Source: Bacilli bacterium | GTDB taxonomy: Bacteria > Bacillota_I > Bacilli_A > RFN20 > CAG-826 | Reading direction: 5' to 3' | Length of the DNA: 64,000 nucleotides | Assembly (NCBI GenBank): GCA_036657515.1 | Contig: JAVXGI010000003.1 | Span: forward strand, 45 to 64,044 | In this document: one piece after another, positions 3,156 through 24,317 of the stretch | How the letters are laid out: each line of letters opens with the position of its first letter | Position numbering within the stretch: the stretch's first letter is position 1 | Made by a program: the position numbers and the translations under genes | The notes under the pieces: generated by a model | Databases searched by the model: none | What the model saw: only the letters and a program-made list of their open reading frames with translations | Told to the model about the DNA's origin: nothing

Positions 3156-3441
3156 ATAAAGTCATTAATATAAAACAAACACTTTAAGGATAAATCAAGG
3201 GATTATAAATTGAGTGGTTATGTTTAAACTATTTGTTATTTGTAATTACATGTATATAAGAAACGTCTATGAGGACTGGTGCTGATTGCATTGTTGATAT
3301 TAACAGGGAAAAGAAGTTTTATTAATTTAATTTATTTTTTTAATGAAAGACAGTGTTTCTATTTTAATAACGTTAAACTTAGTATCTAACCTCAATTAAA
3401 TAACGTAAACATACATCAATTAAATAACGAAATTATACGTA

Positions 3442-3469
3442 TTGACATATCTTGAATAGGTTCTATAAT
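3442..3469 (+). promoter_or_regulatory. sigma-70 type promoter (TTGACA-16bp-TATAAT) with long structured 5' leader, copy 1
   Basis: Consensus -35/-10 hexamers read directly. The ~100-nt leader carries an 11-bp inverted repeat, ATTTGAAAATA (3494-3504) / TATTTTCAAAT (3529-3539). The whole ~190-bp block is repeated at 4477-4645. Confidence 0.6.
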
Positions 3470-3569
3470 ATTTTAAAAGAAGACATTTTATTATTTGAAA
3501 ATATTGGCTTGTAATTAAATAATGGCTCTATTTTCAAATAATATATTTTTCAATTAAAAGGAGAAGAAT

Positions 3570-3923
3570 ATGGATGTTAAAGAACATAAATTTAAAATAG
3601 GAGATGCAGTAGTCCTAAAGGAAAGAGACCCTAAGTGGGATGAAGAAGTTATTATAGAACTAATCGTTGGTTATGTCGAGGATCCTAAACTTACGTATAT
3701 TAGCGATATAGAACGAGCTGAGTTATTAGAATCAAATTATGAGTATGTAATTGAATTTGTTGGCTGTGATTGTGGATGGGGCACACTAAGCAACAGACAA
3801 TATGTCAAAGAGTCACAAATTTATAAATGTAAATATAATTCTATCGAAGACTATGAAGATTGGGAATTTGTAGAGGATGCACGAGAAATACTTAGAAAAC
3901 GTGAAAATTCAAATAACAAATGA
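3570..3923 (+). CDS. small acidic Cys-containing protein (117 aa), paralog copy A
   Basis: Good RBS (AAAAGGAGAAGAATATG). It is 117 aa with a CDCGWG motif and an N-terminal KFKIGDAV motif. A near-identical paralog lies at 6346-6699. Confidence 0.7.
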   Translation: MDVKEHKFKIGDAVVLKERDPKWDEEVIIELIVGYVEDPKLTYISDIERAELLESNYEYVIEFVGCDCGWGTLSNRQYVKESQIYKCKYNSIEDYEDWEFVEDAREILRKRENSNNK

Positions 3924-3955
3924 TTCAAAATATCAAAAGTTGTCCAATAAAATAG

Positions 3956-4210
3956 TTGCTTATTAAAGATGATTCTAAACCAGCATATTTATTTTTGCTT
4001 TTTCATACATTATTATTTTGTCATTTGTGTAAGAATGGCGAAGAATACAATAATGAATACATAGAGTGGGTTAAAAAAGTGTTTACTGATATGTTTCCTG
4101 AGAATATTAATGTAGTATACTTTGCTATTTATACACTTAAAAATAATGAAGTAGTAGAAGTTTATAGACCTGTTTTGCATAAAAAAGATTTTGAAATTCT
4201 AACCACTTGA
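3956..4210 (+). pseudogene. 3' gene fragment homologous to the C-terminus of the 127-aa protein at 7035-7418 (orphan cassette)
   Basis: No RBS. The last ~50 codons (IEWVKKVFTDMFPENINVVYFAIYTLKNNEVVEVYRPVLH.KDFEI) are nearly identical to the 3' end of 7035-7418, while the N-terminal part is unrelated. Confidence 0.55.
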
Positions 4211-4476
4211 ATGAGCAAACTTTAATGTAAAGCGTCAGTTTTGCTATTTTTTATTTTTCTCATAACAAATTTAATAGCGAACCTGTTTTTTTAGGTCTTA
4301 TCTATAGCAAAAAACACTTTAAACTAAAAACATAAAAGGTATTTATGTTCAAATAAAATATAATAATGCATGTTTTTCAAAAAAAGCATGAAAACAACTT
4401 TTTTACTTTATAATTTTGTAATTTACATCTGTTTCACATTTTATGGTTTGATTCTTATTTAATTTGTAATGAAATT

Positions 4477-4645
4477 GTTGTCTAACCTCACCTCAATTAA
4501 ATAACGAAATTATACGTATTGACATATTTAAAACACATTCTATAATATTTTAAAGAAGACATTTTATTATTTGAAAATATTGGCTTGTAATTAAATAACG
4601 GCTCTATTTTCAAATAATATATTTTTCAATTAAAAGGAGAAAAAT
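4477..4645 (+). promoter_or_regulatory. second copy of the promoter + structured leader (TTGACA 4519-4524, TATAAT 4541-4546)
   Basis: Near-identical to 3381-3569, including the 11-bp inverted repeat (4569-4579 / 4605-4615) and the RBS. Here it drives the unrelated 473-aa gene. Confidence 0.6.
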
Positions 4646-6067
4646 ATGGGATTTAAGAAAAAATTATTGTTTCTAACTTGTTTAGCATTTACATTTATTA
4701 CAGTATGTAGACCGATTGCTTCTTCAAATGAATATGAGAAAGTTGAGAAAAATTTACTTACAGAAGTAAAAAGAGCAATTAACGTTTCTAATGAAGAAGA
4801 TATTAATAATCCTGATTTTATTTTCGATAATTCAATTAATGAATACAAAAAACAATTTGCAGAATATATTAATATAACTGGTTTGAATGTTAGCGAAAAG
4901 GACGAAATAGAACTTCCAAACTTTAATTTATCTTATATTGCACCAAATTACAGTGATGTGATGTTAGGATATCAAACAAAACTTGAAAATAGTTTATCTA
5001 CAGAAGATCTAGTTAAGTATGAAGAACTTAGACATCAAGATTTTAATTTTGATAGATATGTTGCTTTAAATTGCGTTAAATACGAAAATTTAACGCCAAC
5101 CTTAAAATATAGCCATAATATTTGTCCTATTCAACCGATTAATCCTGTTACTCCTTTAAATCCTGCAATCAATGTAGGCGATGTTTCGACTAGAGCGGTT
5201 GTTGCTGGAACTTCAGCGATAGTTTCGATTTTAACTATGGCCGGTTTAGGACAGACTGCAATTACAGCTTTTACCGCCTGTATTTCAACAATTACTGCAG
5301 GTCTTTCTACAAGCTGGATTCCATTTATTGGTTGGATACTTGCTATTGCAATAGTCACTGGAGCTTTAATTGCTTTAGTGGTAATTATTGTTCAAAATTG
5401 GGAAGCTATTTGCGACGCGATGGAACAAATTAAATCATGGTTTTTGGAACAATTTGCAAGCTTTGCTGCTTTAATAACTTCATTTTTTGCTGATGCAATC
5501 GCAAAAGGAATTGAATCAACAATTGCTGGAAGAGATCACATAGGAAATAAAGAATTGGTATGGAAATCAAAAACTGTTGAAAAAGAGAGCGCTATTGCAT
5601 TGACAGAATCGTTAAGAAGAGATAAAAAAAGAATATTTTTAATGAAAAATGTTAGAAAGAAAGTCAATCCAATTGATAATGGGATGTATGTTAATTATTG
5701 GACCACTGATGGATACTATGATGAGGATTTTGTAACATCATTTAATCTTTATGATTACGGTATAAGTACATATACTTGGTACAATGATAATGCAAGGCGT
5801 CTTATGCTTAATGGAAGTACGAAAATACAATATAATCCCACTGAATATACAATTATGTATCATAATTTTTTAATAAATGATACAGCACTAAATGGATGGA
5901 ATCACTATCATATTTATGGAGTAAAATTAAATAGTGAGACTAATCAAAAGGAATATAACGATTTACACGGAGATTTACTTCATAAAGCTCATTCATTCTT
6001 TGGCCTTATGTATCTTAAATCTATTGATGGACAAATTGAGACACAAACTTTTCCAAAAAATCCATAA
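4646..6067 (+). CDS. secreted/membrane protein: signal peptide, N-domain, two hydrophobic helices (Gly/Ala/Thr-rich hairpin), aromatic His-rich C-terminal domain
   Basis: 473-aa ORF. N-terminal signal (possible lipobox ITVC), ~70-aa hydrophobic segment AVVAGTSAIVSILTMAGLGQTAITAFTACISTITAGLSTSWIPFIGWILAIAIVTGALIALVVIIV, and a C-terminal region rich in Y/W/H (HYHIYGVK, LHGDLLHKAHSFFG). Confidence 0.65.
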   Translation: MGFKKKLLFLTCLAFTFITVCRPIASSNEYEKVEKNLLTEVKRAINVSNEEDINNPDFIFDNSINEYKKQFAEYINITGLNVSEKDEIELPNFNLSYIAPNYSDVMLGYQTKLENSLSTEDLVKYEELRHQDFNFDRYVALNCVKYENLTPTLKYSHNICPIQPINPVTPLNPAINVGDVSTRAVVAGTSAIVSILTMAGLGQTAITAFTACISTITAGLSTSWIPFIGWILAIAIVTGALIALVVIIVQNWEAICDAMEQIKSWFLEQFASFAALITSFFADAIAKGIESTIAGRDHIGNKELVWKSKTVEKESAIALTESLRRDKKRIFLMKNVRKKVNPIDNGMYVNYWTTDGYYDEDFVTSFNLYDYGISTYTWYNDNARRLMLNGSTKIQYNPTEYTIMYHNFLINDTALNGWNHYHIYGVKLNSETNQKEYNDLHGDLLHKAHSFFGLMYLKSIDGQIETQTFPKNP

Positions 6068-7034: not shown

Positions 7035-7418
7035 ATGAAATTTAAATATGGCGACTTAGTATATAGCACAGAATTAAGAAAAATAGAACATCTTTTTCCA
7101 ATGCTTGTTATTAAGTTTTACAGTAAAAAAGATAAGTATTTATGCTTAACTGCATCAAGGTATTCTCCAGGTGATGAAGGCACTATTTTTTATCTTGTGG
7201 CCGAAAGTGAATTAACTATGTTTGAACATTTTGACGGCGAGGATGGCGAAGAATTCAATGATGATCATATAGAGTGGGTTAAAAAAGTGTTTACTGATAT
7301 GTTTCCTGAGAATATTAATGTAGTATACTTTGCTATTTATACACTTAAAAATAATGAAGTAGTAGAAGTTTATAGACCTGTTTTGCATAGAAAAGATTTT
7401 GAAATTCCAACAACTTGA
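7035..7418 (+). CDS. 127-aa protein; N-terminal KFKYGDLV motif, C-terminal domain shared with the two upstream fragments
   Basis: RBS GGAGG precedes the ATG. The C-terminal 50 aa are identical to the fragments at 3956-4210 and 6732-6986. The N-terminus resembles the N-terminus of the 117-aa proteins (KFK-GD-V). Confidence 0.65.
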   Translation: MKFKYGDLVYSTELRKIEHLFPMLVIKFYSKKDKYLCLTASRYSPGDEGTIFYLVAESELTMFEHFDGEDGEEFNDDHIEWVKKVFTDMFPENINVVYFAIYTLKNNEVVEVYRPVLHRKDFEIPTT

Positions 7419-7621
7419 ATGAGCAAGCCTTAATTTTTTTAGTTCTTTTTAATAAAAAACTCTTTTAACTAAAAACATAAAAGATACATGTGCTGTGAAA
7501 GTATCAGATTAGACACATAAAAATAATACTGTAAACTATCTTTCTAAATTTTATGAGTTAAGTATGACTAATGGTTATTTCATTTTTAATAGTAAAAAGA
7601 CATATTAACTTATTTATTATT

Positions 7622-8533
7622 CTATTTCGCATTCTTAATAAATTTATCTATTTCATCATTACATTTAATTGATTCTTTTTTGTTAGGAGCAGTTACATTA
7701 AAAACATGTATTGCATCAGGTGATGATTCATAATAAAACGAAAAAGATATATCATCTTTAATGAATAATTCTTTTAATTTAAATGCTTGCTCACCTACTA
7801 CGCTATCACCCTTACTTGTTACTATTAATATATTAGTTACTTTATTCATTAAAGATGATATATCTTCAAAAGAATAAGCATTCTTTATTGATTTATTCTT
7901 ATTAATCATTAAGTTATTAAACTTATTAACAGCTATTTTATTTAAGATATTATGATGTAACATAATTTTCATATCACGAACAAATGGAGCTGGATGATTT
8001 AATATAAGATTTTTAATCTTAATATCAATATGTTTTACTTTATATAAAGCTTGAAGTTCATTATTTTCATTAATAATATCAAATAATAGTGCAAGATGTC
8101 CACCAGCACTATTTCCTGCTAATGTAATATTATTTTTATCATATGAATATTTGTTATTTAATTTAACAATGTTTGAAATAGAAGCAAAGACATCTTGCAC
8201 CATTTCACTAATTCCTACTTCTGGAATTAATCTATAATTAATAGAAACTACAAGATAGCCTCTTCGTGCAAAATCCATTGCGTATAATCCATTAAGATTT
8301 TCATCTCCATAAATCCATGCTCCACCATGAAGCACGATAAGAAGAGGCTTTAAATCTTCTTTGTTTCTATTAATATAGAAGTTTTGTTTAAGAAGAGTTG
8401 AAGTGGTAGAAAACGTTTCAGGAAAGACATCAATATCTTTAACGTTAGATTGAGACTTTATAAATGGTTCATCATGGATTCTCATTTTTTCTTTAAGATC
8501 TAGAATTTGCTTTGTTAAGTATTTATTAAACAT
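7622..8533 (-). CDS. alpha/beta-hydrolase fold esterase/lipase (Aes-like)
   Basis: HGGAW oxyanion motif (LHGGAWIYGD), nucleophile elbow GNSAGGH, and a later His. Confidence 0.7.
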   Translation of the reverse strand: MFNKYLTKQILDLKEKMRIHDEPFIKSQSNVKDIDVFPETFSTTSTLLKQNFYINRNKEDLKPLLIVLHGGAWIYGDENLNGLYAMDFARRGYLVVSINYRLIPEVGISEMVQDVFASISNIVKLNNKYSYDKNNITLAGNSAGGHLALLFDIINENNELQALYKVKHIDIKIKNLILNHPAPFVRDMKIMLHHNILNKIAVNKFNNLMINKNKSIKNAYSFEDISSLMNKVTNILIVTSKGDSVVGEQAFKLKELFIKDDISFSFYYESSPDAIHVFNVTAPNKKESIKCNDEIDKFIKNAK

Positions 8534-9671: not shown

Positions 9672-10556
9672 ATGAAAGGCCTATTACTTACTAATGCATT
9701 TGCTATAAATGAACATATAGAATTTCAAAGTAACTCATTTATTAAAGAGTTTAATCTTTTAGGTGTGGATCTTATTCATAAGACTAATAGTGAGTTATTA
9801 GTATATATAAATAATGATGGAGATATTGCTAAAAGATTTAACGAATACGATTTTATCTTGTATTTTGACAAAGATAAATACATTGGTAAAATGCTTGAAA
9901 AAGTCGGTTGTTCACTAATTAATTCTAGTTCTAGTGTTGAAGCGTGTGATGATAAGATGCTTACTCATATATTACTTGCTAATAACGGTATAAAGATGCC
10001 TAGAACTATCTCTTATCCATTATGTTACGAGTACCACAATAATATAGAGCCCGTTATAGCAAGTGTCTTAAAAGCCTTTAATTTTCCTTTTATCATTAAA
10101 GAAAACTTTGGTTCACTTGGTAAACAAGTATATCTTGTTAAAAATAAAGAAGAATTAATGTTATTAGAAAATAAGTTACGTTATGTTCCACATTTATATC
10201 AAGAATTTATCAGTGAATCAATTGGAGTTGATTATCGATTAATATTAATTGGAAACAAAGTAGTATCTGCAATGAAAAGAAGCAATGATAGTAATTTTGT
10301 TGCAAATATTGGATCTGGAGGTAAAGGAGAAACCTATATTCCTGATACAAGAATGAAAGAGATTGCTATTAAAGCTTCTAAAATATTAGGATTAGATTAC
10401 TGTGGAATTGATTTTGTTATCAATAGTCTTGGGGAACCAGTCTTATTAGAAGTAAATTCAAATGCTTTCTTTAAAGAAATAGATAAAATAAATAATATTA
10501 ATATACCAGAGATTTTTGCTAAATACGTAATTGAAAAAGTCAAAAATATAGATTAA
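9672..10556 (+). CDS. ATP-grasp family ligase (RimK / glutathione-synthetase-like)
   Basis: 294 aa. ATP-grasp signature region (GSLGKQVYLV, DYRLILIGNKVVSAMKR, LEVNSNAFF). Followed by a terminator hairpin. Confidence 0.6.
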   Translation: MKGLLLTNAFAINEHIEFQSNSFIKEFNLLGVDLIHKTNSELLVYINNDGDIAKRFNEYDFILYFDKDKYIGKMLEKVGCSLINSSSSVEACDDKMLTHILLANNGIKMPRTISYPLCYEYHNNIEPVIASVLKAFNFPFIIKENFGSLGKQVYLVKNKEELMLLENKLRYVPHLYQEFISESIGVDYRLILIGNKVVSAMKRSNDSNFVANIGSGGKGETYIPDTRMKEIAIKASKILGLDYCGIDFVINSLGEPVLLEVNSNAFFKEIDKINNINIPEIFAKYVIEKVKNID

Positions 10557-10713
10557 TTGGTATTTTTTACCGATTAATCTATATTTTTTATTGATAAAGT
10601 CGTTGTAACGAAAAATTGTTTCAAATTTTTACTTTTTTTGTTGAAAATCTTTTTTAGTTATTATATAATTTAATCGGTATTAAGATACCGAATAACTTGA
10701 AAGGACAAAGATA

Positions 10714-11355
10714 ATGGAAAAGAAAGATTTACTATCTCATAACTGTATAACAAGACTTCCTTTATACCTTAATTATCTTAAATCACTTGATTATGATGAT
10801 CTTACATTAGTATCAACCCAAAGTATTGCTACTGGATTGAATATTAATGCCGAAGTGGTTAAAAAAGATATTGCGGCTATTTCTTCTGAGAAAGGAATGC
10901 CAAGAAAAGGTAGAAGTGTAGTTTTATTAGTTAAAGATCTAGAAAAATTTCTAGGAGCAGGCTGTCAAATTAATGCTGTATTAATAGGAACAGGACATCT
11001 TGGAAAAGCACTTCTAAATTATGATGGATTTAGTGAATATGGATTAAACATTATTGCAGCTTTCGATTCTGATCCGCGATGTCGAGAAATAGATGTCTGT
11101 GGTATTAATGTCTACTCAATGAGTTTATTAGACAATATTATCAAAGACAAACATGCGGAAATCGGAATTATTACAGTTCCAAGCCACGCTGCACAAAGCG
11201 TAGCGGAAAAACTGGTACAAGCTGGAATAAAAGCAATATGGAATTTTGCTCCAATTAATCTTAATCTTGATCCTAGTATTATTGTCGCTAATGTTAATAT
11301 GGCAAGTTCACTTGCAGTATTATCACATCAACTTTATCTTAATAATCTGAAATAA
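10714..11355 (+). CDS. rex: redox-sensing transcriptional repressor Rex
   Basis: 213 aa. N-terminal winged-helix (RLPLYLNYL) and Rossmann GTGHLG motif. Sits immediately upstream of adhE, the classic Rex target. Confidence 0.8.
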   Translation: MEKKDLLSHNCITRLPLYLNYLKSLDYDDLTLVSTQSIATGLNINAEVVKKDIAAISSEKGMPRKGRSVVLLVKDLEKFLGAGCQINAVLIGTGHLGKALLNYDGFSEYGLNIIAAFDSDPRCREIDVCGINVYSMSLLDNIIKDKHAEIGIITVPSHAAQSVAEKLVQAGIKAIWNFAPINLNLDPSIIVANVNMASSLAVLSHQLYLNNLK

Positions 11356-11372
11356 AAAGGAGAACATTAAAT

Positions 11373-14012
11373 ATGTCCGAAAAAAAGAATGAATCAGTTC
11401 AAACACCAAACGAAGAGACAGTAAAAACTATTAACACACTTGTTGAAAATGGATTAAACGCTCTTGAAGAATATAGCGAACTTAATCAAGAACAAATTGA
11501 CTTCATCGTTGCAAAATGTAGCGTTGCTGCATTAGATAAACATGGAGTTCTTGCTAAAGCTGCAGTAGATGAAACAGGACGTGGCGTATTTGAAGATAAA
11601 GCAACTAAAAACTTATTTGCTTGTGAATACGTTGTTAATTACATGAGACATATCAAAACAGTTGGGATTATCGATGATAATCCTGTAACTGGAATAGTCG
11701 AGATCGCAGATCCAGTCGGTGTTGTATGTGGAATTACTCCAGTTACAAATCCTACTTCAACTGTTATTTTTAAAGCATTAATTTGTATTAAAACTAGAAA
11801 TCCTATTATTTTTGCTTTCCATCCTAATGCTCAACAATGTTCTAAAATGGCTGCTCAAGTAATGCTTGATGCTGCTATTGCAGCAGGAGCACCAAAGAAT
11901 TGTATTCAATGGGTTGAAAAACCATCAATGGAAGCAACATCTTTATTAATGAATCATCCAGGAGTTGCAACAATTCTTGCTACCGGCGGCAACGCCATGG
12001 TTAAAGCAGCTTATAGTTGTGGAAAACCTGCACTTGGCGTTGGAGCCGGAAATGTTCCTACTTATATTGAAAAATCAGCTGATGTTAAACAAGCATGTAA
12101 CGATATTGTTATGTCAAAAGCCTTTGACAACGGAATGGTTTGTGCCTCAGAACAAGCAGCAGTTATAGATAAGGAAATATATAAAGAGTGTATTTCTCAA
12201 TTTAAACTTTATGGAGTTTATTTTGTTAACGCTGAAGAAAAAGCTAAATTAGAGAAATTTATGTTTGGTTATGTTGCATTTGAAGCAGGAGTTCACGCTG
12301 GAACAGTTAATGCTAATGTTGTTGGTAAAAAAGCATCATGGATTGCTGAACAAGCCGGATTTGAAGTCCCAGAAAATACAATTATTTTAGCTGCTGAAGT
12401 TAAAGAAATTGGACTTAACGAACCATTAACAAGAGAAAAATTATCACCAGTTTTAGCAATTATTAAATCCAATTCAACTGAAGAAGGAATGAAATATTCT
12501 GAACAAATGGTTGAACTTAATGGACTTGGACATAGTGGAGCAATCCATACTGCCTCAAAAGAACTTGCTGAAGAATATGGTTTAAGAGTAAAAGCTTGTA
12601 GAATTATTTGGAATTCACCAACAACATTTGGTGGTATTGGAAATATTTATAACTCATTTGCTCCTTCTATGACACTTGGATGTGGATCATATGGTCATAA
12701 CTCAGTATCAGGAAATGTAAGCGTATATAATTTAATGAACATTAAAAGAATTGGTAAAAGGAGAAATACAATGCAATGGTTTAAGGTTCCATCAAAAATT
12801 TACTTTGAAAGAAATTCAATTGAATATTTAAGAACATGTAGAGATGTTGAAAAAGTATTTATCGTAACAGATAGAATGATGGTTGATCTTGGATTCGTTA
12901 ATAAGATTACAGATCAATTAAACTTAAGAAGAAATGCTGTAAAAATACAGTTGTTCTGTGACGTTGAACCAGATCCTGATATATCAACAGTTAGACGTGG
13001 CGTTCAATTAATGGAATCATTTAGACCAGATACTATTATTGCTTTAGGTGGAGGATCCGCCATGGATGCTGCTAAAGGAATGTGGTTATTCTACGAACAT
13101 CCAGAAGTTAACTTTGATGACTTAAAACAAAAATTCATGGATATTCGTAAAAGAGCATTTAAATATCCAGAATTAGGAAGAAAATCTAAATTAATTTGTA
13201 TTCCAACTACCTCTGGTACTGGAAGTGAGGTTACGCCATTTGCTGTTATCTCCGATAAAGCAAATTGCAAAAAATATCCTTTAACTGATTATAGTCTTAC
13301 TCCAACTGTTGCTATTGTTGATCCAGAATTTACAACTAATCTTCCTGCAAAAGTAACAGCTGATACCGGAATGGATGTTCTTACTCACGCAATTGAAGCT
13401 TATACTTCAGTTCTTGCAAGTGACTTTACTGATGGACTTGCACTTGAATCAATTAAATTAGTCTTTAAATTCCTTGGTCGTTCTTATAAAAACGGAGCTA
13501 ATGATCCAGAAGCAAGAGAAAAAATGCACAATGCTGCAACTATTGCAGGAATGGCATTTGCTAACGCTTTCTTAGGAATGTGCCATGCTATGGCACATAA
13601 GTTAGGTGCTCAATTACACTTACCTCATGGCTTATTAAACGCTATTTTATTACCTTACGTAATTAGATATAATGGACAAATCATACCAGGAAAGGTAAGT
13701 GTCTGGCCAAAATATAATCATTATGAAGCATCTGAAAAATTTGCTGAAATCTGCCGTGTTGTTGGTATTCCTTATAAGTCTCTTGCTGATGCTCCAATTG
13801 CTTTAGCAGATGCTGTTACTAAACTTGGAGAAGAAGTCGGATTAACAATGCACTTTGATGCATATTATCCAGATGAAGCAGATTATATGAAAAATATTGA
13901 ACAAGTCGCTTATCTTGCTTATGAAGATCAATGCACACCTGCTAACCCACGTGTTCCAATGGTTGAAGACATGATTAAGATTATGAAAGACGCATATCAC
14001 GGTAACAAATAA
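11373..14012 (+). CDS. adhE: bifunctional acetaldehyde-CoA / alcohol dehydrogenase
   Basis: 879 aa. N-terminal ALDH domain and C-terminal Fe-ADH domain (GGGSAMDAAK, histidine cluster HAMAHKLG). Confidence 0.92.
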   Translation: MSEKKNESVQTPNEETVKTINTLVENGLNALEEYSELNQEQIDFIVAKCSVAALDKHGVLAKAAVDETGRGVFEDKATKNLFACEYVVNYMRHIKTVGIIDDNPVTGIVEIADPVGVVCGITPVTNPTSTVIFKALICIKTRNPIIFAFHPNAQQCSKMAAQVMLDAAIAAGAPKNCIQWVEKPSMEATSLLMNHPGVATILATGGNAMVKAAYSCGKPALGVGAGNVPTYIEKSADVKQACNDIVMSKAFDNGMVCASEQAAVIDKEIYKECISQFKLYGVYFVNAEEKAKLEKFMFGYVAFEAGVHAGTVNANVVGKKASWIAEQAGFEVPENTIILAAEVKEIGLNEPLTREKLSPVLAIIKSNSTEEGMKYSEQMVELNGLGHSGAIHTASKELAEEYGLRVKACRIIWNSPTTFGGIGNIYNSFAPSMTLGCGSYGHNSVSGNVSVYNLMNIKRIGKRRNTMQWFKVPSKIYFERNSIEYLRTCRDVEKVFIVTDRMMVDLGFVNKITDQLNLRRNAVKIQLFCDVEPDPDISTVRRGVQLMESFRPDTIIALGGGSAMDAAKGMWLFYEHPEVNFDDLKQKFMDIRKRAFKYPELGRKSKLICIPTTSGTGSEVTPFAVISDKANCKKYPLTDYSLTPTVAIVDPEFTTNLPAKVTADTGMDVLTHAIEAYTSVLASDFTDGLALESIKLVFKFLGRSYKNGANDPEAREKMHNAATIAGMAFANAFLGMCHAMAHKLGAQLHLPHGLLNAILLPYVIRYNGQIIPGKVSVWPKYNHYEASEKFAEICRVVGIPYKSLADAPIALADAVTKLGEEVGLTMHFDAYYPDEADYMKNIEQVAYLAYEDQCTPANPRVPMVEDMIKIMKDAYHGNK

Positions 14013-14027
14013 ACAAAAGGAGAAATT

Positions 14028-14279
14028 ATGGAAATATACATTTGTGTTGGTTCATCTTGCCACTTAAAGGGAAGCCATGAAATTATCGATTTATTAAAAG
14101 AACATTTAGAAAAAGACAATTTAACTGAAAAAGTAACTTTAAGAGGTACATTTTGCTTAGGCAAATGTACCTCCGAAGGAGTTAATGTTAAAGTTAACGA
14201 CGAGGTTATTACTGGAATCAAAAAAGAGAACTTTGAACAGTTCTATAATGAAAAAATTTTGTCACAAATAAATCAATAA
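14028..14279 (+). CDS. thioredoxin-like [2Fe-2S] ferredoxin (HfsA/HydX-like small subunit)
   Basis: 83 aa with four Cys in a Cx4C...Cx3C pattern (CVGSSCH ... CLGKC). Confidence 0.65.
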   Translation: MEIYICVGSSCHLKGSHEIIDLLKEHLEKDNLTEKVTLRGTFCLGKCTSEGVNVKVNDEVITGIKKENFEQFYNEKILSQINQ

Positions 14280-14321
14280 CGCTGCAAAACTTCATTATTT
14301 TTGCATAATAGGAAGGTATTT

Positions 14322-16001
14322 ATGGAAAACATTTTAGGACTAAAAAAGTCGAATTGTAAGAATTGTTATAAGTGTATTAGACACTGTCCTGTTAAATCTA
14401 TTAGATTTGAGGAAAATCAAGCTCATATTATTAAGGATGAATGCATTCTTTGTGGTATGTGTTTTGCAATTTGTCCACAAGATGCCAAAGCTATTAGAAA
14501 TGATGTCGGATTAGTTCGCAAAGCTATTGCTGAGGGAAAAAAAGTTATCGCAACTTTAGCTCCATCATTTGTAGCAAACTACGAAAATAGTAATCTTACC
14601 TCAATTACTTCTACATTAAAAAGCTTAGGTTTTGCTGATGTTGTTGAAACATCAGTTGGAGCTAAAGTTGTTAAAGATAAATATGATGAATTAGTTAATT
14701 CTAATGAGCATGATATTTTGATTTCAACGTGCTGCCATAGTGTTATCCTTCTTATTGAAAAATATTATCCAGAATTAGTGAAATATTTAGCAGAAGTAAA
14801 ATCTCCAATGCAAGTATCAGGAGATTTAATTGCAAAAGAAAATCCTGATGCTTTTATTGTTTTTATTGGACCATGTATTTCTAAAAAAGATGAGATTGAA
14901 AAAGTTAAAACTAACATAGATGTAGTTCTAACTTTTGAAGAACTTGATTCATGGTTTAAAGAAGATAATATTAAGTTAGCAGAGATTTCTGAAGATAAAT
15001 TAGAAAGATCAAAAACAAGATTATTTCCAACGACGGGTGGAATTCTTAAAACAATGGCTTGTAATAATAGCGAATTTACATATATGGCAATCGATGGAAT
15101 GGAAAACTGCATGAAGGCACTAGATGACATTACACATAATCTACTTCATAATGTTTTCATTGAAATGTCATCTTGTGCCGGAAGCTGTATTAATGGACCA
15201 TCAATTATTAAGGAACACCAAGCTCCAATTAAAGATTTTATTAGAATATCAAAATATGCAGGTTCTGCAGACTATTTGATAGATAAAGATGCAGTTGAGA
15301 CGAAAAAAGAATTTAAATATCTAGGAACACATAAATCTATTCCTAGTGAAAAAGATATTGAAGATATTTTACAAAGAATGGGTAAAATTACAAAAGAGAA
15401 AGAATTAAATTGTGGATCTTGTGGATATCCAACATGTAGAGATAAGGCTGTAGCTATATTTCAAGGCAAAGCTATGATTGAAATGTGTTTACCATTTTTA
15501 CAAGAAAAAGCTCAATCTTTCTCTGATAACATTATTAAGATTACTCCAAACGGAATTTTAGTATTAAATGAAAAACTTCATATTGAGTTAGCAAATAAAG
15601 CCATGTGTGATATTTTTTGTGTAAGTTCACAACAACGTTTAGTTGGTAAAGATATAAGTGAATTTATAAATCCTGGTTTATTTGCAACTGTTTTAAATGA
15701 AAAAAGACAAATAAAAGCAAGAAAGATGCATTTAGATAGACAAAATAAATATGTTGAAATGAGTGTAAGTTATGATGAAGATCATCATATTATTATCTTA
15801 TTAGTAAGAGATATTACTGAAGAAACTAATGAAAAAACTGAAAAAGATTTAATGATTCAAAGAACAATTGAGATTACTAATAATGTTGTACAAAAACAAA
15901 TGACAGCAGTTCAAGAAATTGCTTCTTTATTAGGAGAATCTACTGCTGAGACGAAAGTTGCTTTAATTAATTTAAAGGACTCACTTGAAAATGGCAAATA
16001 A
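14322..16001 (+). CDS. sensory [FeFe]-hydrogenase-like protein with C-terminal PAS domain (HydS/HfsB-like)
   Basis: Two 4Fe-4S ferredoxin motifs (CKNCYKCIRHCP, CILCGMCFAICP). H-cluster domain with degenerate L1 (TCCHS) and conserved L2/L3 (GPCISKK, EMSSCAGSCINGPS). A further Cys cluster, then a PAS-like region. Start chosen at ATG 14322 (RBS AGGAAGG); the ORF track uses an upstream TTG. Confidence 0.75.
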   Translation: MENILGLKKSNCKNCYKCIRHCPVKSIRFEENQAHIIKDECILCGMCFAICPQDAKAIRNDVGLVRKAIAEGKKVIATLAPSFVANYENSNLTSITSTLKSLGFADVVETSVGAKVVKDKYDELVNSNEHDILISTCCHSVILLIEKYYPELVKYLAEVKSPMQVSGDLIAKENPDAFIVFIGPCISKKDEIEKVKTNIDVVLTFEELDSWFKEDNIKLAEISEDKLERSKTRLFPTTGGILKTMACNNSEFTYMAIDGMENCMKALDDITHNLLHNVFIEMSSCAGSCINGPSIIKEHQAPIKDFIRISKYAGSADYLIDKDAVETKKEFKYLGTHKSIPSEKDIEDILQRMGKITKEKELNCGSCGYPTCRDKAVAIFQGKAMIEMCLPFLQEKAQSFSDNIIKITPNGILVLNEKLHIELANKAMCDIFCVSSQQRLVGKDISEFINPGLFATVLNEKRQIKARKMHLDRQNKYVEMSVSYDEDHHIIILLVRDITEETNEKTEKDLMIQRTIEITNNVVQKQMTAVQEIASLLGESTAETKVALINLKDSLENGK

Positions 16002-17172
16002 TATTACATATGATGTTGGTTATAAATCAATAAATCATTATGGTGAAGAACTTTGTGGAGATCATGTTGAAAGAGTATCAGATTTTAAACATGGTACTTT
16101 TGCTGTTGTTTTAGCAGATGGATTAGGATCCGGAGTTAAAGCTAATATTCTTTCAATTTTAACTTCTAAAATCATTTCAACTATGATGGCAAATGGAGCA
16201 TATATTGAAGATTGTGTTGCAACAATTGCTTCTACTCTTCCAGTATGTAAACTTAGAGGAGTAGCTTATTCAACCTTCTCAATTGCTAAAGTTATTAAAA
16301 ATAATGTTATTGAAATATATGAATATGATAATCCTCACTTTGTAATGTTACGTAATGGAGTTTTATTTGAACCAGTTTGTGAAACATTAACAATTGAAGG
16401 AAAATTAATTACAAAATCTACTATTAATGTTGAAGAAAATGATACTCTTATTTTCTTTAGCGATGGTGCGGTGCATGCTGGAATTGGTGCAGAACTAAAT
16501 TTTGGTCGGGAACGTAATGAAATCGCAGAGTTTATGCAAAATATGTACGATCACTCTTATTCTGCAAAAACTTTATGTACAATATTAAGTGATAAATGTA
16601 ACCAATTATACGAAGAAAAACCAGGAGATGATACAACGGTTTTAGTTATTAAAGCTCGTAAGAAAAATGATGTAAATCTTGTATTTGGTCCACCTCGAAA
16701 CGCAGAAGATGATGCTAAAATGTGTGAAGCATTCTTTACTTCACCAGGAAAACACATTGTTTCCGGCGGCACAACCTGCAATATTATCTCAAGATATCTC
16801 CAAAAACCTATTTCGGCAGAACTAGATATGTATGTTAAAAATGATATTCCACCGATGGCTAAAATTGAAGGTTGTGATTTAGTTACGGAAGGAGTTATTA
16901 CTTTATCAAAAGTAGTCGAATATGCTTCTTCATTCTTATATAATAATGAGAAGTTTTATGATTGGCTTTATGATAATGATGGAGCAAGTCTTATTACAAG
17001 ATGTTTACTTGAAGAAGCAACAGATATTTCTTTCTTTGTAGGAACAGCAATAAATCCTGCTCATCAAAATCCTAATCTTCCTATTTCATTTAATATAAAG
17101 ATGCGTATTATAGAAGAGTTAGCATCTAAACTTAGAGAAATTGGTAAACGAGTTACTATTAATTATTTTTAA
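15991..17172 (+). CDS. PP2C-family Ser/Thr phosphatase (SpoIIE/RsbU-like; HfsC-like)
   Basis: Metal-binding PP2C motifs (CGDHVE, VLADGLGSGVKA, FFSDGAVHAG). Overlaps the hydrogenase-like gene by a few codons. Confidence 0.7.
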   Translation: MANNITYDVGYKSINHYGEELCGDHVERVSDFKHGTFAVVLADGLGSGVKANILSILTSKIISTMMANGAYIEDCVATIASTLPVCKLRGVAYSTFSIAKVIKNNVIEIYEYDNPHFVMLRNGVLFEPVCETLTIEGKLITKSTINVEENDTLIFFSDGAVHAGIGAELNFGRERNEIAEFMQNMYDHSYSAKTLCTILSDKCNQLYEEKPGDDTTVLVIKARKKNDVNLVFGPPRNAEDDAKMCEAFFTSPGKHIVSGGTTCNIISRYLQKPISAELDMYVKNDIPPMAKIEGCDLVTEGVITLSKVVEYASSFLYNNEKFYDWLYDNDGASLITRCLLEEATDISFFVGTAINPAHQNPNLPISFNIKMRIIEELASKLREIGKRVTINYF

Positions 17173-17187
17173 AAAGGAAGGTAAATT

Positions 17188-18627
17188 ATGTATAAATTTG
17201 ATACCAAAGTACAAGAACTTAAATATAGAGTCTTAAAAGAAGTAGCAAAACTTGCTTATGAAGATAAGTTAGTAGAAAAAATGAATGAAATACCAAAAAT
17301 TATTGTTCCAGGTCCAAAACCAACAATGAGATGTTGTATTTATAAAGAAAGAGCAATTGCTGCGGATCGAGTTGCTTTAGCAGTAAAAAAACCAAAAGAA
17401 AGTGAAAATGTAATTCATGTTATTTCGATTGCTTGCGAAGACTGTCCTTTAGGAGGATATTTTGTCGGTGACGCATGTCGTGGATGCATCGCACATAGAT
17501 GTGAAACAGTTTGTTTTAAAAAAGCAATCTATTTTGATGAAGTAACGCGTCACGCTCATATTGATAAAACTAAATGTGTAAATTGTGGATTATGTGCAAA
17601 GAATTGCCCATATAACGCTATTACTAATAGAGTTAGACCGTGTGAGGCAGCTTGTCCCGTAAAGGCTATATCTCCAGATATAAATGGAGCAGCAGTTATT
17701 AATGATGATAAATGTGTTCAATGTGGTAAATGTGTATATATGTGTCCATTTGGTGCAATTAATGATGAATCATATATTACTGAAGTAATAAAATACTTTA
17801 AAGAGAGTGAAAACAATACTAAATATAAAGTTTATGCAATCGTTGCTCCTTCTATTTCATCACAGTTTTATTATGCTAAATTAGGGCAAGTAATTTCAGG
17901 ATTGAAATTACTTGGATTTCATACAGTAGTAGAAGCTGCACTTGGAGCAGATATGGTTGCGTATAAAGAAGCTAAAGAATTAGAAGAAAAAGGAATATTA
18001 ACTTCTTCTTGCTGTCCTGCTTTTGTTTCCTATATTAAAAAGATGTATCCTAGTTTAGTAGGTAATATATCTAGTAATCTTTCTCCAATGGCTGAGATAT
18101 CTCGCTATGTAAAATCAGTTGATCCAACTAGTAAAGTAGTATTTATTGGACCATGTACGGCAAAGAAACAAGAAATAAAAGATGAGAAAGTAGGAGAATA
18201 TGTTGATGCTACCCTTACTTTTGAAGAAGTCCAAGCTCTTTTTGATGCTAAAGACTTAGATATTAGTTCTTTAAAGTTAGATTTACTTGATAACGCTTCT
18301 TATTTTGGGCGAATATTTGCAAGAACTGGTGGATTAAGTGATTCAGTTGTTGAAGCACTTAAAGAACAAGGATCAGACTTTGAAGTTAAACCTGTAGTTT
18401 GCAGTGGAATTGATGAATGTAAGTTAGCTCTTAATAAGTTTAAAGCTGGAAAACTAGATGGTAACTTTATTGAAGGAATGGCTTGTAATGGTGGCTGTAT
18501 TGGGGGACCATGCTGCTTAACTCATGAAGTAAGAGATAAATCCGAAGTAGATAAATACGGTCATGAAGCACTAGAAAAAACCATTGAAAGTGCCATTAGT
18601 GCTGTTGAAGATATAGATAAAAAATAA
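17188..18627 (+). CDS. [FeFe] hydrogenase catalytic subunit (HydA/HfsD-like)
   Basis: Multiple 4Fe-4S motifs, plus canonical H-cluster motifs L1 TSSCCPAF, L2 FIGPCTAKK and L3 EGMACNGGCIGGPC. Confidence 0.8.
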   Translation: MYKFDTKVQELKYRVLKEVAKLAYEDKLVEKMNEIPKIIVPGPKPTMRCCIYKERAIAADRVALAVKKPKESENVIHVISIACEDCPLGGYFVGDACRGCIAHRCETVCFKKAIYFDEVTRHAHIDKTKCVNCGLCAKNCPYNAITNRVRPCEAACPVKAISPDINGAAVINDDKCVQCGKCVYMCPFGAINDESYITEVIKYFKESENNTKYKVYAIVAPSISSQFYYAKLGQVISGLKLLGFHTVVEAALGADMVAYKEAKELEEKGILTSSCCPAFVSYIKKMYPSLVGNISSNLSPMAEISRYVKSVDPTSKVVFIGPCTAKKQEIKDEKVGEYVDATLTFEEVQALFDAKDLDISSLKLDLLDNASYFGRIFARTGGLSDSVVEALKEQGSDFEVKPVVCSGIDECKLALNKFKAGKLDGNFIEGMACNGGCIGGPCCLTHEVRDKSEVDKYGHEALEKTIESAISAVEDIDKK

Positions 18628-18687
18628 TAGTTAAATTAAATAAAAGCGATTAGAAATATATAAATTGTTTCTTCTGCAAAAAAAATA

Positions 18688-18727
18688 AAAATTAGTTTTT
18701 CTTAGCAAAAACTAATTTTTTTCCTTT
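18688..18727 (+). terminator. rho-independent terminator after hydrogenase operon
   Basis: Hairpin AATTAGTTTTT-CTTAGC-AAAAACTAATT followed by a T-run. Confidence 0.6.
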
Positions 18728-18911
18728 TTTGCTCTAAAATGAGGAAAATCAAGGAAAATTCAGGACTTAATTCAAAGTTTTTGAATGAGATTGAGTTTTT
18801 TTTATTAAAATTTATAGTTATTTTGATATAAATATTGATAAATGACAAGAAATTCAAAAGACATTGAGTTTTTTTTATAATGTTTTATAATATAGAAAAG
18901 GAGCTAAAATT

Positions 18912-19634
18912 ATGAAAAAGTGTTTTAGTCTAGCATTTATTCCAATGTTATTGCTCACTTCATGCAATAACGTAAGCGATTTATCAAAAGAGAGATTTGA
19001 TTTTATCTATAATCATATTATGGAAAATAAAATGAATGTTTTTACTGTTAAAACAGATGATTCAACATGGTCTTTTGATAATCAAAAAGCTAAAAAAGAA
19101 TTAGATGACGGTAGTTCTATTTACTATTATGTAAGCGATAATAAAGTATTAATGAAAATATTTGATGCTGATGGGAAGCCTCTACAAGATATTACAACAC
19201 CGGATGATTATCGTTTCTTTGCTTCATTTAAATTAAATATGTTTGCATCAATATTTCCTATTAATATACCTAGTGTAATTGAAAAAGAAATGACAACATA
19301 TGATGCTTCTAATGAGTACTTTATGAATGTAATTAAGAACTTTAATATTAATTCTGCATATGAGGTTTCTAGTGCAGGATCTGAAAGAACATTATCGTTT
19401 TGTGCAAAATTCAGTAAACCAGAAAATGAAGCACATGAAATAGTTACTACAGAAAGTTTTATATCTTATTATTACGAATATCAAGATTATGGTAAAGACG
19501 AAGTTAATATTAAGATTAAAAGAACAGATATTGAAAAAACATATGTAAAAGAAAAATTAAAAGTTATGAATACTCGTGATTATGATTTTAAATTTTCTAA
19601 CTACTGTTATGATGAAATTATTGTTCCTAATTAA
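18912..19634 (+). CDS. putative lipoprotein
   Basis: 240 aa with signal peptide and LLTSCNN lipobox. Confidence 0.5.
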   Translation: MKKCFSLAFIPMLLLTSCNNVSDLSKERFDFIYNHIMENKMNVFTVKTDDSTWSFDNQKAKKELDDGSSIYYYVSDNKVLMKIFDADGKPLQDITTPDDYRFFASFKLNMFASIFPINIPSVIEKEMTTYDASNEYFMNVIKNFNINSAYEVSSAGSERTLSFCAKFSKPENEAHEIVTTESFISYYYEYQDYGKDEVNIKIKRTDIEKTYVKEKLKVMNTRDYDFKFSNYCYDEIIVPN

Positions 19635-19836: not shown

Positions 19837-20697
19837 ATGAAAATAAAATATTTATCCACTGTTTGTTTATTAAGTACTTTGCTATTTTCTTGTGGAAACG
19901 GAAGTGATCTTATTGATTCAAATTTAACTGCTACATTAAACAGTGAATTTAAATATAAAAGAAATTTTGAAACAAACTGGTGGAATGAAAAAGATGGTAA
20001 GAATTATTATTTTGAAAAATCTAAAGATCAAGTTATCTTAGAATTTAAAACATACGACAAAGAATTACTTGGAGTGTATTTTAAAACATCTTATGTAGAA
20101 AAAATGCTTTCAAAATTAAACGAGAGCAGTTCAGGTGACAGACTAGTTTTTTACGAAAAATTAACTGAAAGTGCCTCAAATTCTTTAGATATATTAGAAA
20201 AGAAAAATACTATCAAGTATGTAAATGCAAAAACAATAGAGTCGCTCCCGTTTCAAACAGGAGAATACACTTTAGGTAAAATATGCACGACAAGAGATGT
20301 AATAGTAACTAAAAATGATAAAACAATAACTAAAAAAATAATAGGCAACTCAACTTATGCTGCAACTACAAATGGTATTGTTCATAAAGATTTAAATACA
20401 TATGAAAAAAATGCTATTGGTAAATTTTCATATGTTGATGCTCCTGGCGAAGACTCACACTTAAAATTAGAGAATTCCTTTTTAACTTGTGGAGAAAATG
20501 GGTTCTATTATGATTTTAATTCTCACGCATTACCTATAATTAATTACAAAGGAAAAGACTGCATTAAAATAGTTGATATACTTTATAGCAACTATTCTAA
20601 TTATGAAGAAATTAAAACAATAATTAACAAAAGTAAAATCGGAACAGAGGTTGAATCTGATATAACTTTTTCCTATTTGGATGTCACAAAATTCTAG
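19837..20697 (+). CDS. putative lipoprotein
   Basis: 286 aa with signal peptide and LFSCGNG lipobox. Confidence 0.5.
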   Translation: MKIKYLSTVCLLSTLLFSCGNGSDLIDSNLTATLNSEFKYKRNFETNWWNEKDGKNYYFEKSKDQVILEFKTYDKELLGVYFKTSYVEKMLSKLNESSSGDRLVFYEKLTESASNSLDILEKKNTIKYVNAKTIESLPFQTGEYTLGKICTTRDVIVTKNDKTITKKIIGNSTYAATTNGIVHKDLNTYEKNAIGKFSYVDAPGEDSHLKLENSFLTCGENGFYYDFNSHALPIINYKGKDCIKIVDILYSNYSNYEEIKTIINKSKIGTEVESDITFSYLDVTKF

Positions 20698-23134: not shown

Positions 23135-23147
23135 TAAGTGTAAGATA

Positions 23148-23230
23148 TATCCGGGTGCTGAAGTATATTCGGCTGAGATGATTGTAGTCAATCAAACCGT
23201 ACTTGATCTAGGTAATACTAGCGGAAGGAG
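23148..23230 (+). ncRNA. TPP (THI-box) riboswitch
   Basis: GGTGC ... CTGAGA ... ACC-N-TGATCTAGGTAATACTAGCGGAAGG matches the THI-box core elements. Lies directly upstream of a ThiT-like transporter. Confidence 0.8.
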
Positions 23231-23234
23231 AAAT

Positions 23235-24317
23235 ATGGAACAAAAAGTTATCAAGGAAAAAACTTTTACAGAGAAAATGGTTGCTGTAATAAGTGAAAAC
23301 AGGACCATTATTCTAGACGTAGTCGCATTAGTAGCAGGAGTTATAGGAATAATTCTATCTCTATTTGCTTTTGCTAAGATTAAAGATTTTGAAGGGACAA
23401 AGATTATAGTTACAGGAATAGAGGTATTCTTTGGAACTAGCAGTTTATTAGGATTTAATGTGATTGCATTTTTTATCTTCTTACTTCCTTTATTAGGATT
23501 AGTAAGTATTCCAATGTCACATTTCTTTAAACCAATTAAAGGCATGTCGGCTTTATTCTTACTTGCATCAGCTATTTTAATTATTATTTTACCATCAGTT
23601 TTAATTCAAGGAATTGACGGACCACGATTTGAGTATGTTAAGCTACAAGATTTTGCAGCAATTGCAAGCGCTCTTTATTTCTTATCAGGTATTGCATTGT
23701 TTATCTCTGATTATCAAAATGATAAATTCTCAATTTCTGACATTGCAGAAACTGCAATGTTAATTGCAATTGCCGTCGTATTAAATTATATAAAAGTTCC
23801 ACTTGGAGCAACGGGCGGATCAATTAACTTACAAATAGTACCACTTGTTATAATTGCATTACGTTATTCACCATCTAAAACATTTTTTGCATCAGGATTA
23901 TGTTATGGATTAATATCATGTATTCTTGATGGATATGGATTACATACCTTTCCATTTGAATATTTAATTGCATTTGGTTCAGTTGTTATTATTTCGTTTG
24001 TTAGAAAATACGTTATATCTAAAGGAAAACCAACTATTATTGGAGGAGCATTAATCCTATTCTTAGTAATGGTTGCTACTGGTATTAGATTCTTTGGCGC
24101 TTCATTTGATAGTGTAATATTCTATAACTATACTTGGACTGCTGCTTTTGCATATAACGCAATTTATATTTGGCCAACTGGAGCATTAACTGCAGTTGTT
24201 GCTGTTTTATTTTATATAAAACCTTTATTCTTTTTAAATAGATTATTCCCAACTACCGATATGAAGCGTGATTTAACTGAAAAAGTTGTTGTTGAAGAAA
24301 TCGCAGAAACAAAATAA
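23235..24317 (+). CDS. thiamine ECF-transporter substrate-binding (S) component ThiT-like, with N-terminal extra membrane domain
   Basis: C-terminal half matches the ThiT family pattern (AETAMLIAIAVVLNYI..LGATGGSINLQIVPLVIIALRYS). The N-terminal ~170 aa are additional TM helices. Start at ATG 23235 with RBS GGAAGGAG; the ORF track's upstream TTG start would run through the riboswitch. Confidence 0.65.
   Translation: MEQKVIKEKTFTEKMVAVISENRTIILDVVALVAGVIGIILSLFAFAKIKDFEGTKIIVTGIEVFFGTSSLLGFNVIAFFIFLLPLLGLVSIPMSHFFKPIKGMSALFLLASAILIIILPSVLIQGIDGPRFEYVKLQDFAAIASALYFLSGIALFISDYQNDKFSISDIAETAMLIAIAVVLNYIKVPLGATGGSINLQIVPLVIIALRYSPSKTFFASGLCYGLISCILDGYGLHTFPFEYLIAFGSVVIISFVRKYVISKGKPTIIGGALILFLVMVATGIRFFGASFDSVIFYNYTWTAAFAYNAIYIWPTGALTAVVAVLFYIKPLFFLNRLFPTTDMKRDLTEKVVVEEIAETK

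Follow-up and report, generated by a model that had tools for sequence, protein, structure and literature searches.

We propose that six genes within a 64-kb stretch of DNA from an uncultured, gut-type Bacilli bacterium (contig JAVXGI010000003.1, positions 45 to 64,044; hereafter the window) probably form a single operon, rex-adhE-fdx-hydS-pp2C-hydB, whose ortholog in Ruminococcus albus 7 is the Rex-AdhE-HydS-HydA2 cluster and which would be both H2-responsive and Rex-controlled. The assignment of a single operon draws on what the genes encode and how closely they are packed, on a single promoter-like site and a single terminator, and on a gene order that is widely conserved. The cluster is already known from R. 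albus and Clostridium thermocellum and the window adds no new kind of system, but rather a kinase-less, single-ferredoxin form of it in an uncultured, low-GC Bacilli lineage.

The six-gene locus

The six open reading frames (ORFs) lie between positions 10714 and 18627 of the window, are all on the + strand, and encode in order Rex, AdhE, a ferredoxin, a sensory hydrogenase, a PP2C phosphatase and a catalytic hydrogenase (Table 1). A previous sequence-only reading had called the same six genes, and its calls and positions are upheld, the calls by Pfam and NCBIfam scans, while the order and spacing of the ORFs bear out its description of a direct rex-adhE-hfs linkage. From rex to hydB, the genes are separated by gaps of 17, 15 and 42 nucleotides (nt), an 11-nt overlap and a gap of 15 nt. 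The ORF of the sensory hydrogenase as listed begins with the TTG at 14301 and public assemblies call the ATG at 14322, which is the likely start as it is preceded by a candidate ribosome-binding site (AGGAAGG). The phosphatase most likely starts at the ATG at 15991, which gives the 11-nt overlap with the hydS stop. The small ferredoxin has its four cysteines at positions 6, 11, 43 and 47 in a CX4C...CX3C pattern.

The only strong + strand promoter candidate between the upstream terminator and rex is a sigma-70-type site, and within the operon the terminator scan returned a single + strand match, a weak stem of 5 bp in adhE. The AT-rich hairpin that follows hydB is, from its predicted fold, the likely operon terminator, and it was missed by the scan because its stem has no G+C.

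Table 1. Positions in the window of the operon genes and of the associated promoter, palindrome and hairpin elements.
Feature	Position	Strand	Evidence
Hairpin with 20-bp stem and T run, after upstream RimK-like gene	10543-10587	+	Terminator scan; -24.1 kcal/mol, z = -8.4
Distal palindrome copy TTGGTAtttttTACCGA, 5-nt spacer	10557-10573	+	1 mismatch; top of upstream terminator hairpin; 117 bp upstream of first copy
Sigma-70-type promoter-like site TTGAAA-17 nt-TATAAT	10641-10669	+	11/12 consensus match
Perfect palindrome TCGGTAttaagaTACCGA (TCGGTA-N6-TACCGA)	10674-10691	+	Sole zero-mismatch match in the 64-kb window
rex	10714-11355	+	NCBIfam NF003994, 222.9 bits (cutoff 130); Pfam PF06971 Put_DNA-bind_N and PF02629 CoA_binding
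adhE, bifunctional acetaldehyde-CoA/alcohol dehydrogenase	11373-14012	+	NF010378, 1371.7 bits (cutoff 951), residues 10-878, full length
Thioredoxin-like [2Fe-2S] ferredoxin, 83 amino acids	14028-14279	+	PF01257, 36.7 bits (cutoff 24.8)
hydS/hfsB-type sensory (group C) [FeFe] hydrogenase, 559 amino acids	14322-16001	+	2x Fer4, Fe_hyd_lg_C, PF04060 FeS, PAS_9
PP2C (SpoIIE/RsbU-type) Ser/Thr phosphatase	15991-17172	+	PF07228 SpoIIE, 56.9 bits (cutoff 25)
Catalytic monomeric group B [FeFe] hydrogenase, HydA2/HfsD ortholog	17188-18627	+	TIGR04105, 555 bits (cutoff 450)
AT-rich hairpin with 14-bp stem and U run	18687-18730	+	RNA fold -21.1 kcal/mol, z = -2.8

Conservation among relatives

The arrangement of the six genes is far beyond chance, and the order recurs in the same species, in more distant relatives and in dozens of genomes at the species level. 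When one genome per species was scanned, at least 595 had a relative, and the 80 best loci were kept, with synteny called by tblastn. At 99% identity, the sensor matches a protein of metagenome-assembled genomes labelled "Bacilli bacterium", and four same-species assemblies carry all six genes in the same context. The order rex-adhE-fdx-hydS-pp2C-hydB is also present in relatives with sensors that are 73, 60 and 54% identical, and other relatives have an extra APH-type kinase gene after adhE, or fdx-hydS-pp2C-hydB alone. In 77 of 79 relatives hydS has a ferredoxin gene ahead of it, PP2C follows it in 71 of 71, and a group B hydrogenase comes next in 52 of 61. Where there was enough upstream sequence (69 species-level loci), adhE is linked to hydS in 33 and rex in 26. 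Direct coupling to adhE had been put forward as distinctive of the window, and this must be given up as no other layout of the cluster is as common in the sampled relatives. In full, the layout seen most often is Rex-AdhE-kinase-Fdx-Fdx-HydS-PP2C-HydB, and the layout with one ferredoxin and no kinase is that of the window and of loci L010, L013/L014 and L024, the last of which is labelled Anaeroplasmatales.

The AdhE of the window is 73-78% identical to those of the kinase-less clusters (L010, L013 and L024) but only 44-46% identical to those of Clostridia-type clusters (L001, L015, L025 and others), while HydS, PP2C and HydB retain 49-67% identity to their Clostridia-type counterparts. This drop in AdhE identity, set against the steady values of the other three proteins, suggests separate events of adhE recruitment or replacement in the two lineages. 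An unusual locus in this set is that of Desulfitobacterium sp. Sab5 (L066), in which two cluster-type rex genes (1950-2684 and 7337-8047) are found less than 6 kb upstream of a hydS-PP2C pair next to which no ferredoxin, adhE or group B hydrogenase could be detected.

Comparison with known systems

In R. albus 7 the orthologous cluster (RUMAL_RS17350-17385) is carried by plasmid pRUMAL01 and consists of Rex-AdhE(Aad)-kinase-Fdx-Fdx-HydS-PP2C-HydA2, in which the kinase is annotated as "phosphotransferase". The primary paper on this cluster is reportedly that of Zheng et al. (2014). The shared genes have the same order and strand as in the window, and the encoded proteins are 48% (HydS, over 99% of its length), 53% (PP2C), 63% (HydA2), 44% (AdhE) and 39% (Rex) identical, with the R. 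albus Rex and hydrogenase finding the same best NCBIfam models as those of the window. A palindrome of the same family, TCGATAaagataaTATCGA, is also present upstream of rex. The two systems differ in that R. albus has a gene for a 250-amino-acid APH-type kinase and two ferredoxin genes whereas the window has no kinase and one ferredoxin, in the AdhE, which in the window is of a different lineage, and in the position of the palindrome, which is further upstream in R. albus but overlaps the expected transcription start in the window. Moreover, the R. albus cluster is plasmid-borne while that of the window has housekeeping surroundings. When R. albus 7 is grown in co-culture with an H2 consumer the eight-gene cluster is 111-fold down-regulated (Greening et al. 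2019, PMC6776011). The same study proposes a role in H2 sensing for the group C hydrogenase transcribed with the cluster, through which both the alcohol dehydrogenase and the ferredoxin-only hydrogenase would be induced (PMC6776011).

The hfsABCD genes of Thermoanaerobacterium saccharolyticum and T. thermosaccharolyticum are similar by their published descriptions, in that HfsB (PAS hydrogenase), HfsC (PP2C) and HfsD (ferredoxin-linked hydrogenase) are in the same order as in the window and there is no kinase gene. The equivalence to hfsABCD drawn in the sequence-only reading can thus be upheld for B, C and D only, as HfsA is described as matching no known protein apart from a partial likeness to hydrogenase large subunits (PMC11837493), while the first gene in the window encodes a thioredoxin-like PF01257 [2Fe-2S] ferredoxin. 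The hfs genes are also tied genetically to adhE expression and ethanol yield (PMC5707799, PMC11837493). Deletion of hfsA or hfsB in Thermoanaerobacterium raises both the adhE transcript and ethanol yield (PMC5707799), and deletion of hfsB raises ethanol in C. thermocellum (PMC5707799, PMC7063780). In contrast to the window, however, locus tags place adhE (Tsac_0416) and rex (tsac_2615) apart from hfs (hfsB, tsac_1551). In C. thermocellum DSM 1313, Clo1313_1799 (Rex_1799), Clo1313_1798 (adhE) and Clo1313_1795 (hfsB) are neighbors, as judged by locus-tag numbering only (PMC8457756, PMC11365378, PMC7063780). A parallel in function is the HoxBC-HoxJ-HoxA system of Ralstonia eutropha, where a hydrogenase-like sensor of low activity and protein phosphorylation control the genes of catalytic hydrogenases (PMC5707799), but this involves a [NiFe] sensor, a histidine kinase and a response regulator, none of which is homologous to the window proteins.

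Proposed mechanism

By analogy with R. albus, C. thermocellum and Thermoanaerobacterium, from whose literature the H2-dependent step is drawn, the operon would be turned on when H2, and NADH with it, accumulates, with AdhE acting as a sink for NADH that yields ethanol and HydB as a ferredoxin-dependent producer of H2, and it would be off when H2 is kept low or scavenged. HydS, together with the small [2Fe-2S] ferredoxin, would sense H2, and its PAS domain would modulate the PP2C, with which it is presumed to be translationally coupled. The Rex encoded by the cluster would bind the palindrome beside the -10 box, a second copy of which lies upstream, and if the palindrome is indeed the operator of this Rex, the operon would be autoregulated and would also read the NADH/NAD+ ratio. 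The earlier suggestion of one unit that couples H2 sensing to ethanol formation is therefore in keeping, by analogy, with published work on the orthologous cluster (PMC6776011, PMC5707799, PMC7063780).

The component through which HydS might signal is the phosphatase. Its AlphaFold2 model (pLDDT, the predicted local distance difference test, of 85) has a confident PPM fold in the N-terminal 225 residues, for which the top Foldseek matches are 3pu9 (a bacterial Ser/Thr phosphatase), 5mqh and 3ke6, together with SpoIIE and RsbU-type domains (E down to 4.5e-15), and all 27 homologs compared retain the metal-binding aspartates D24, D43, D158, D213 and D214. Residues ~226-393 (window 16666-17172) form a separate C-terminal alpha/beta domain with the strongly conserved motifs HIVxGGTT, DLVTEG, DGAS and NPAHQNPxLPI. 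Three of these (HIVxGGTT, DLVTEG and NPAHQNPxLPI) show little or no variation in HydS-associated phosphatases. This domain has no Pfam match even at E ≤ 10, no PDB sequence match, and no significant PDB neighbor by Foldseek, where the best is methylglyoxal synthase (E = 0.03, TM 0.4-0.5). The weak likeness of the model to the methylglyoxal synthase fold hints that the domain may bind a phosphate-bearing ligand.

Several considerations count against an H2-responsive operon of this kind. In this organism we infer all three of its elements, namely co-transcription, the response to H2 and the binding of Rex. The 80 relative loci are the best-scoring of at least 595 rather than a random sample. No hydE, hydF or hydG maturase gene is present among the ten larger window ORFs that were scanned, eight of which are housekeeping genes and two of which have no family match. 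In addition, the R. albus APH-type kinase has no tblastn match at E ≤ 1e-5 in the 64-kb window, and it is also absent from the relative loci L010, L013 and L024. The phospho-relay proposed for R. albus is hence not transferable as it stands, and the system either relies on a kinase encoded outside the window or puts its phosphatase to a different use.

An alternative is that the genes are co-located with no H2 signal reaching adhE at all, such that Rex alone responds to NADH/NAD+, HydS and PP2C act post-translationally on the activity or assembly of HydB, and the link to ethanol is that of co-expressed redox sinks. The Fdx-HydS-PP2C-HydB core is found in many genomes with neither rex nor adhE, which argues that the primary partner of the sensor module is the hydrogenase, and the literature on hfs offers further support, as the ethanol phenotype of the hfsB deletion in T. 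thermosaccharolyticum requires hfsD (PMC11837493) and changes in adhE transcript do not account for all of the changes in enzyme activity (PMC5707799). Yet the entire eight-gene cluster of R. albus, including adhE, shifts 111-fold when H2 is removed (PMC6776011), and deletions of hfsA and hfsB raise the adhE transcript 2-3 fold even though the genes are unlinked (PMC5707799). Moreover, rex is beside hydS also in clusters that have no adhE (L017, L019, L040, L077, L078 and L095), suggesting that Rex belongs to the sensor module. We therefore consider it unlikely that signaling from H2 to adhE is missing.

The divergent Rex and its predicted operator

The Rex of the window is, judged from its sequence, an NAD(H)-sensing regulator of the Rex family but of a divergent subtype. 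Its alignments to 3wg9 and 2vt2 span the whole protein, the closest solved structure being that of Thermoanaerobacter ethanolicus RSP (3wg9, E = 3e-35), and the GxGxxG motif of the Rossmann domain is kept as G-T-G-H-L-G. Canonical Rex recognizes TTGTGAA-N4-TTCACAA (TTGTTAA-N4-TTAACAA in Clostridiaceae), and the window protein resembles it in having a winged-helix N-terminal domain and a Rossmann NAD(H) domain, in the autoregulated layout beside adhE and in a predicted 18-bp palindromic target with 7-4-7 geometry. It differs in the residues of the recognition helix and wing, in the half-sites, which are TCGRTA, and in having no canonical box at the promoter. In the clade of the window the helix and wing read EVVKKDIAAISSEKGMPRKGRSV, a departure from canonical Rex, and the wing of the window protein, VVKKDIAAISSEKGMPRKGRS, does not take the canonical helix/wing form QIRKDLSxFGxFGxxGxGY. 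Cluster Rex proteins share instead VQVRKDLAxVSGxGKPKIGY. Such divergence agrees with the low identity of the adhE-adjacent Rex_1799 of C. thermocellum to characterized Rex proteins (only 34-36%), and a motif from DNA affinity purification sequencing was reported for Rex_2471 of that organism (the canonical box) and none for Rex_1799 (PMC8457756). The conserved serine in the wing was considered as a phospho-acceptor and ruled out, as cluster Rex proteins vary at this position between Ser, Cys, Thr and Leu.

The sequence-only reading had recommended a search for TTGTGAA-N4-TTCACAA boxes, and these are at chance level in the window and missing from the promoter. With both consensus forms and ≤3 mismatches, the whole window has 28 matches where 29.4 are expected for one form and 5 where 11 are expected for the other, and the rex promoter region has none, its best match having 4 mismatches. 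What is present there is a different, perfect palindrome that begins 5 nt past the -10 box and overlaps the expected transcription start. The palindrome is in the equivalent place in L010 and L013, and the top of the upstream hairpin in L010 carries TTAATCGGTA-N5-TACCGATTAA, even though the upstream gene there is not that of the window.

The motif is tied to rex well beyond these close relatives. In 1.38 Mb of related loci there are 30 exact matches to TCG[GA]TA-N5-7-TA[CT]CGA, about 26 of which are located 30-200 bp upstream of rex/adhE. Allowing ≤1 mismatch, the motif is upstream of 24 of the 30 Rex-encoding clusters versus 4 of the 45 without Rex (Fisher p = 3e-10, a value that overstates independence as the loci are related to each other). 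An unbiased count of 7-mers, with no preset motif, gave ATCGATA as the most enriched upstream of the 30 cluster rex genes (20/30 loci vs 173/4149 background pieces, p = 6e-21). In Clostridia loci the element takes the form of 2-4 TAYCGRTA boxes with a spacing of 14-15 bp. The canonical TTGTKAA-N4-TTMACAA box has the opposite distribution, as at ≤2 mismatches it is upstream of 3/30 Rex-encoding versus 18/45 other clusters, and it is found in 13 of the 15 clusters that contain adhE but not rex. A near-perfect clostridial Rex box is upstream of adhE in the rex-less clusters L021, L041, L044, L045, L048, L070, L072, L074, L079, L082, L084, L085 and L092, and also upstream of the first gene in the rex-less clusters L032, L057, L060, L076 and L088, examples of such boxes being TTGTTAAGACATTAACAA in L076 and ATGTTAAAATATTAACAA in L070. 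The distribution of the two motifs suggests two alternative regulatory designs for the one gene cluster, using either its own Rex with the new palindrome or a canonical Rex box.

The palindrome is hence the predicted operator of the divergent Rex paralog encoded in the cluster, whose targets we predict to be TCGGTATTAAGATACCGA and boxes of the TATCGATA type, including TATCGATA-N6-7-TATCGATA pairs. A further site of potential relevance is found in L095, where a second TAYCGRTA array, TTGATAtagattaTATCGATAttgataaTACCGATA, is located at 840-890, ~100 nt upstream of a gene for an Fe-alcohol dehydrogenase. This is followed by SDR and NfnA/NfnB-like genes (ORFs 978-5479), and the group immediately precedes a rex-kinase-fdx-fdx-hydS cluster lacking adhE.

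It is also conceivable that the palindrome at 10674-10691 does not function as a DNA operator but as a stem-loop at the 5' end of the RNA, which might affect mRNA stability or be recognized by an RNA-binding protein, and that the distal copy is simply the upstream terminator. The palindrome does fold as a 7-bp hairpin (-7.6 kcal/mol, z = -2.4) at the predicted 5' end, the distal copy sits in a strong terminator hairpin, and there are symmetric variants in which both arms have changed (TCAGTA...TACTGA in L024 and L056 and TAGATA...TATCTA in L086). However, it is the sequence of the half-sites, beyond their ability to pair, that is conserved between Bacilli and Clostridia, although the proteins are only 40-50% identical, and four exact sites pair TCGATA with TACCGA, which would create an A-C mismatch in an RNA stem. 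In addition, the arrays of 2-4 boxes in Clostridia are typical of protein-binding DNA, the presence of the motif tracks the gene for a DNA-binding protein, rex, and the hairpin makes no contact with the ribosome-binding site. Given the A-C mismatches, the box arrays and the conservation of sequence rather than of pairing, the RNA hairpin was judged less likely than an operator, and we regard it as improbable.

If the palindrome is taken to be an operator, it is possible, though we put this forward only tentatively, that the cluster Rex (of the Rex_1799 type) is a neofunctional paralog that binds TAYCGRTA boxes (paired as TCGRTA-N5-7-TAYCGA) in place of the canonical Rex box and is the transcriptional output of H2 sensing by HydS/PP2C. 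One promoter would then integrate H2 pressure with NADH/NAD+ to set ethanol against acetate plus H2, and the kinase-less Bacilli version would work with no dedicated kinase. Two observations count against the proposed control of the cluster by its Rex at this palindrome. First, the boxes in R. albus are ~50-70 bp upstream of the likeliest -10 box, whereas in the clade of the window they are over the transcription start, and with such a difference in position between lineages, the clusters may not all be repressed in one simple way. Second, L047 and L059 have the palindrome with no adjacent rex, and six Rex-encoding clusters have no good match.

The two hydrogenases

Both hydrogenases of the window were aligned to CpI of Clostridium pasteurianum, the numbering of which is used here. 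The sensor belongs to group C (HydS/HfsB type) on account of its H-domain, FeS motif, PAS domain and changes at M353 and M497. Its domains are Fe_hyd_lg_C (179 bits), PF04060 (42.5 bits, residues 369-398) and PAS_9 (28.7 bits with a cutoff of 27, residues 416-507). The cysteines equivalent to the H-cluster ligands C300, C355, C499 and C503 are retained and do not vary among relatives, and neither do those of an additional four-cysteine FeS motif (C364, C367, C372 and C389). Compared to CpI, M353 is replaced by Gly, M497 by Ser, E279 by Lys, R286 by Ser and P301 by His, and the changes at M353 and M497 are typical of sensory [FeFe] hydrogenases (PMC10055695). The sensor keeps a cysteine at the C299 position, as do only ~17% of group C enzymes (PMC10055695). 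Thermotoga maritima HydS also combines an H-domain with a PAS domain, and its G177 and S267 correspond to the Gly and Ser of the window sensor at M353 and M497, but it has Ala at the C299 position where the window has Cys, and its genomic partners differ (PMC10055695).

The downstream hydrogenase keeps C299, C300, E279, E282, S319, K358, M497, C499 and C503 and has Gly at M353, and the retention of C299, E279, E282, S319, K358 and M497 would fit a catalytic enzyme. Its R. albus ortholog HydA2 has been labelled a group A1 ferredoxin-only hydrogenase (PMC6776011). HydA2 (L001, 10844-12280) scores 577 bits with the group B model TIGR04105 and only 158 bits with the group A model, and the group B model is likewise preferred over group A by the HydB of the window.

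That HydS is not a sensor, and that the four hfs-like proteins instead make up one multi-subunit hydrogenase in an operon that merely disposes of reducing equivalents, was the first reading of hfs (hydrogenase-Fe-S) and would suit the retained H-cluster cysteines and C299-equivalent Cys, the low but measurable activity of T. maritima HydS (PMC10055695) and the small ferredoxin gene that is nearly always beside hydS, but it is highly improbable given that the PAS domain, the extra FeS motif, M353G and M497S are hallmarks of group C sensory enzymes, that the proton pathway has lost E279 and R286 to other residues, that PP2C is translationally coupled to hydS in 71/71 relatives, and that deletion of hfsB raised rather than lowered hydrogenase activity in T. 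saccharolyticum (PMC5707799).

Genomic surroundings

The window has a G+C content of ~29%, and the neighbors of the locus are housekeeping genes for tRNA modification, aminoacyl-tRNA ligases and an amidotransferase, and DNA ligase. Directly 3' of the operon are two conserved ORFs (18912-19634 and 19837-20697) that have no Pfam or NCBIfam match, the first of which has a lipoprotein-like signal at its N-terminus, MKKCFSLAFIPMLLLTSCNN. An Rfam scan of the window gave tRNAs and a riboswitch for thiamine pyrophosphate only, with no match inside the operon, and the riboswitch (23141-23247, RF00059, 59.7 bits) is 5' of a gene for a Thia_YuaJ-type thiamine transporter.

Significance

In fermenting bacteria of the gut, of the rumen and of biofuel production, the balance of ethanol against acetate plus H2 depends on the partial pressure of H2, and the literature on the engineering of Thermoanaerobacterium and C. 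thermocellum has yet to settle how the signal from HydS/HfsB is passed to adhE. The main by-product of the present analysis is a testable prediction of a palindromic operator for the adhE-linked Rex paralog. If true, it would supply the missing link at the level of DNA in this H2-responsive switch, and would offer a handle for engineering ethanol yield or the flows of H2 and methane in the rumen.

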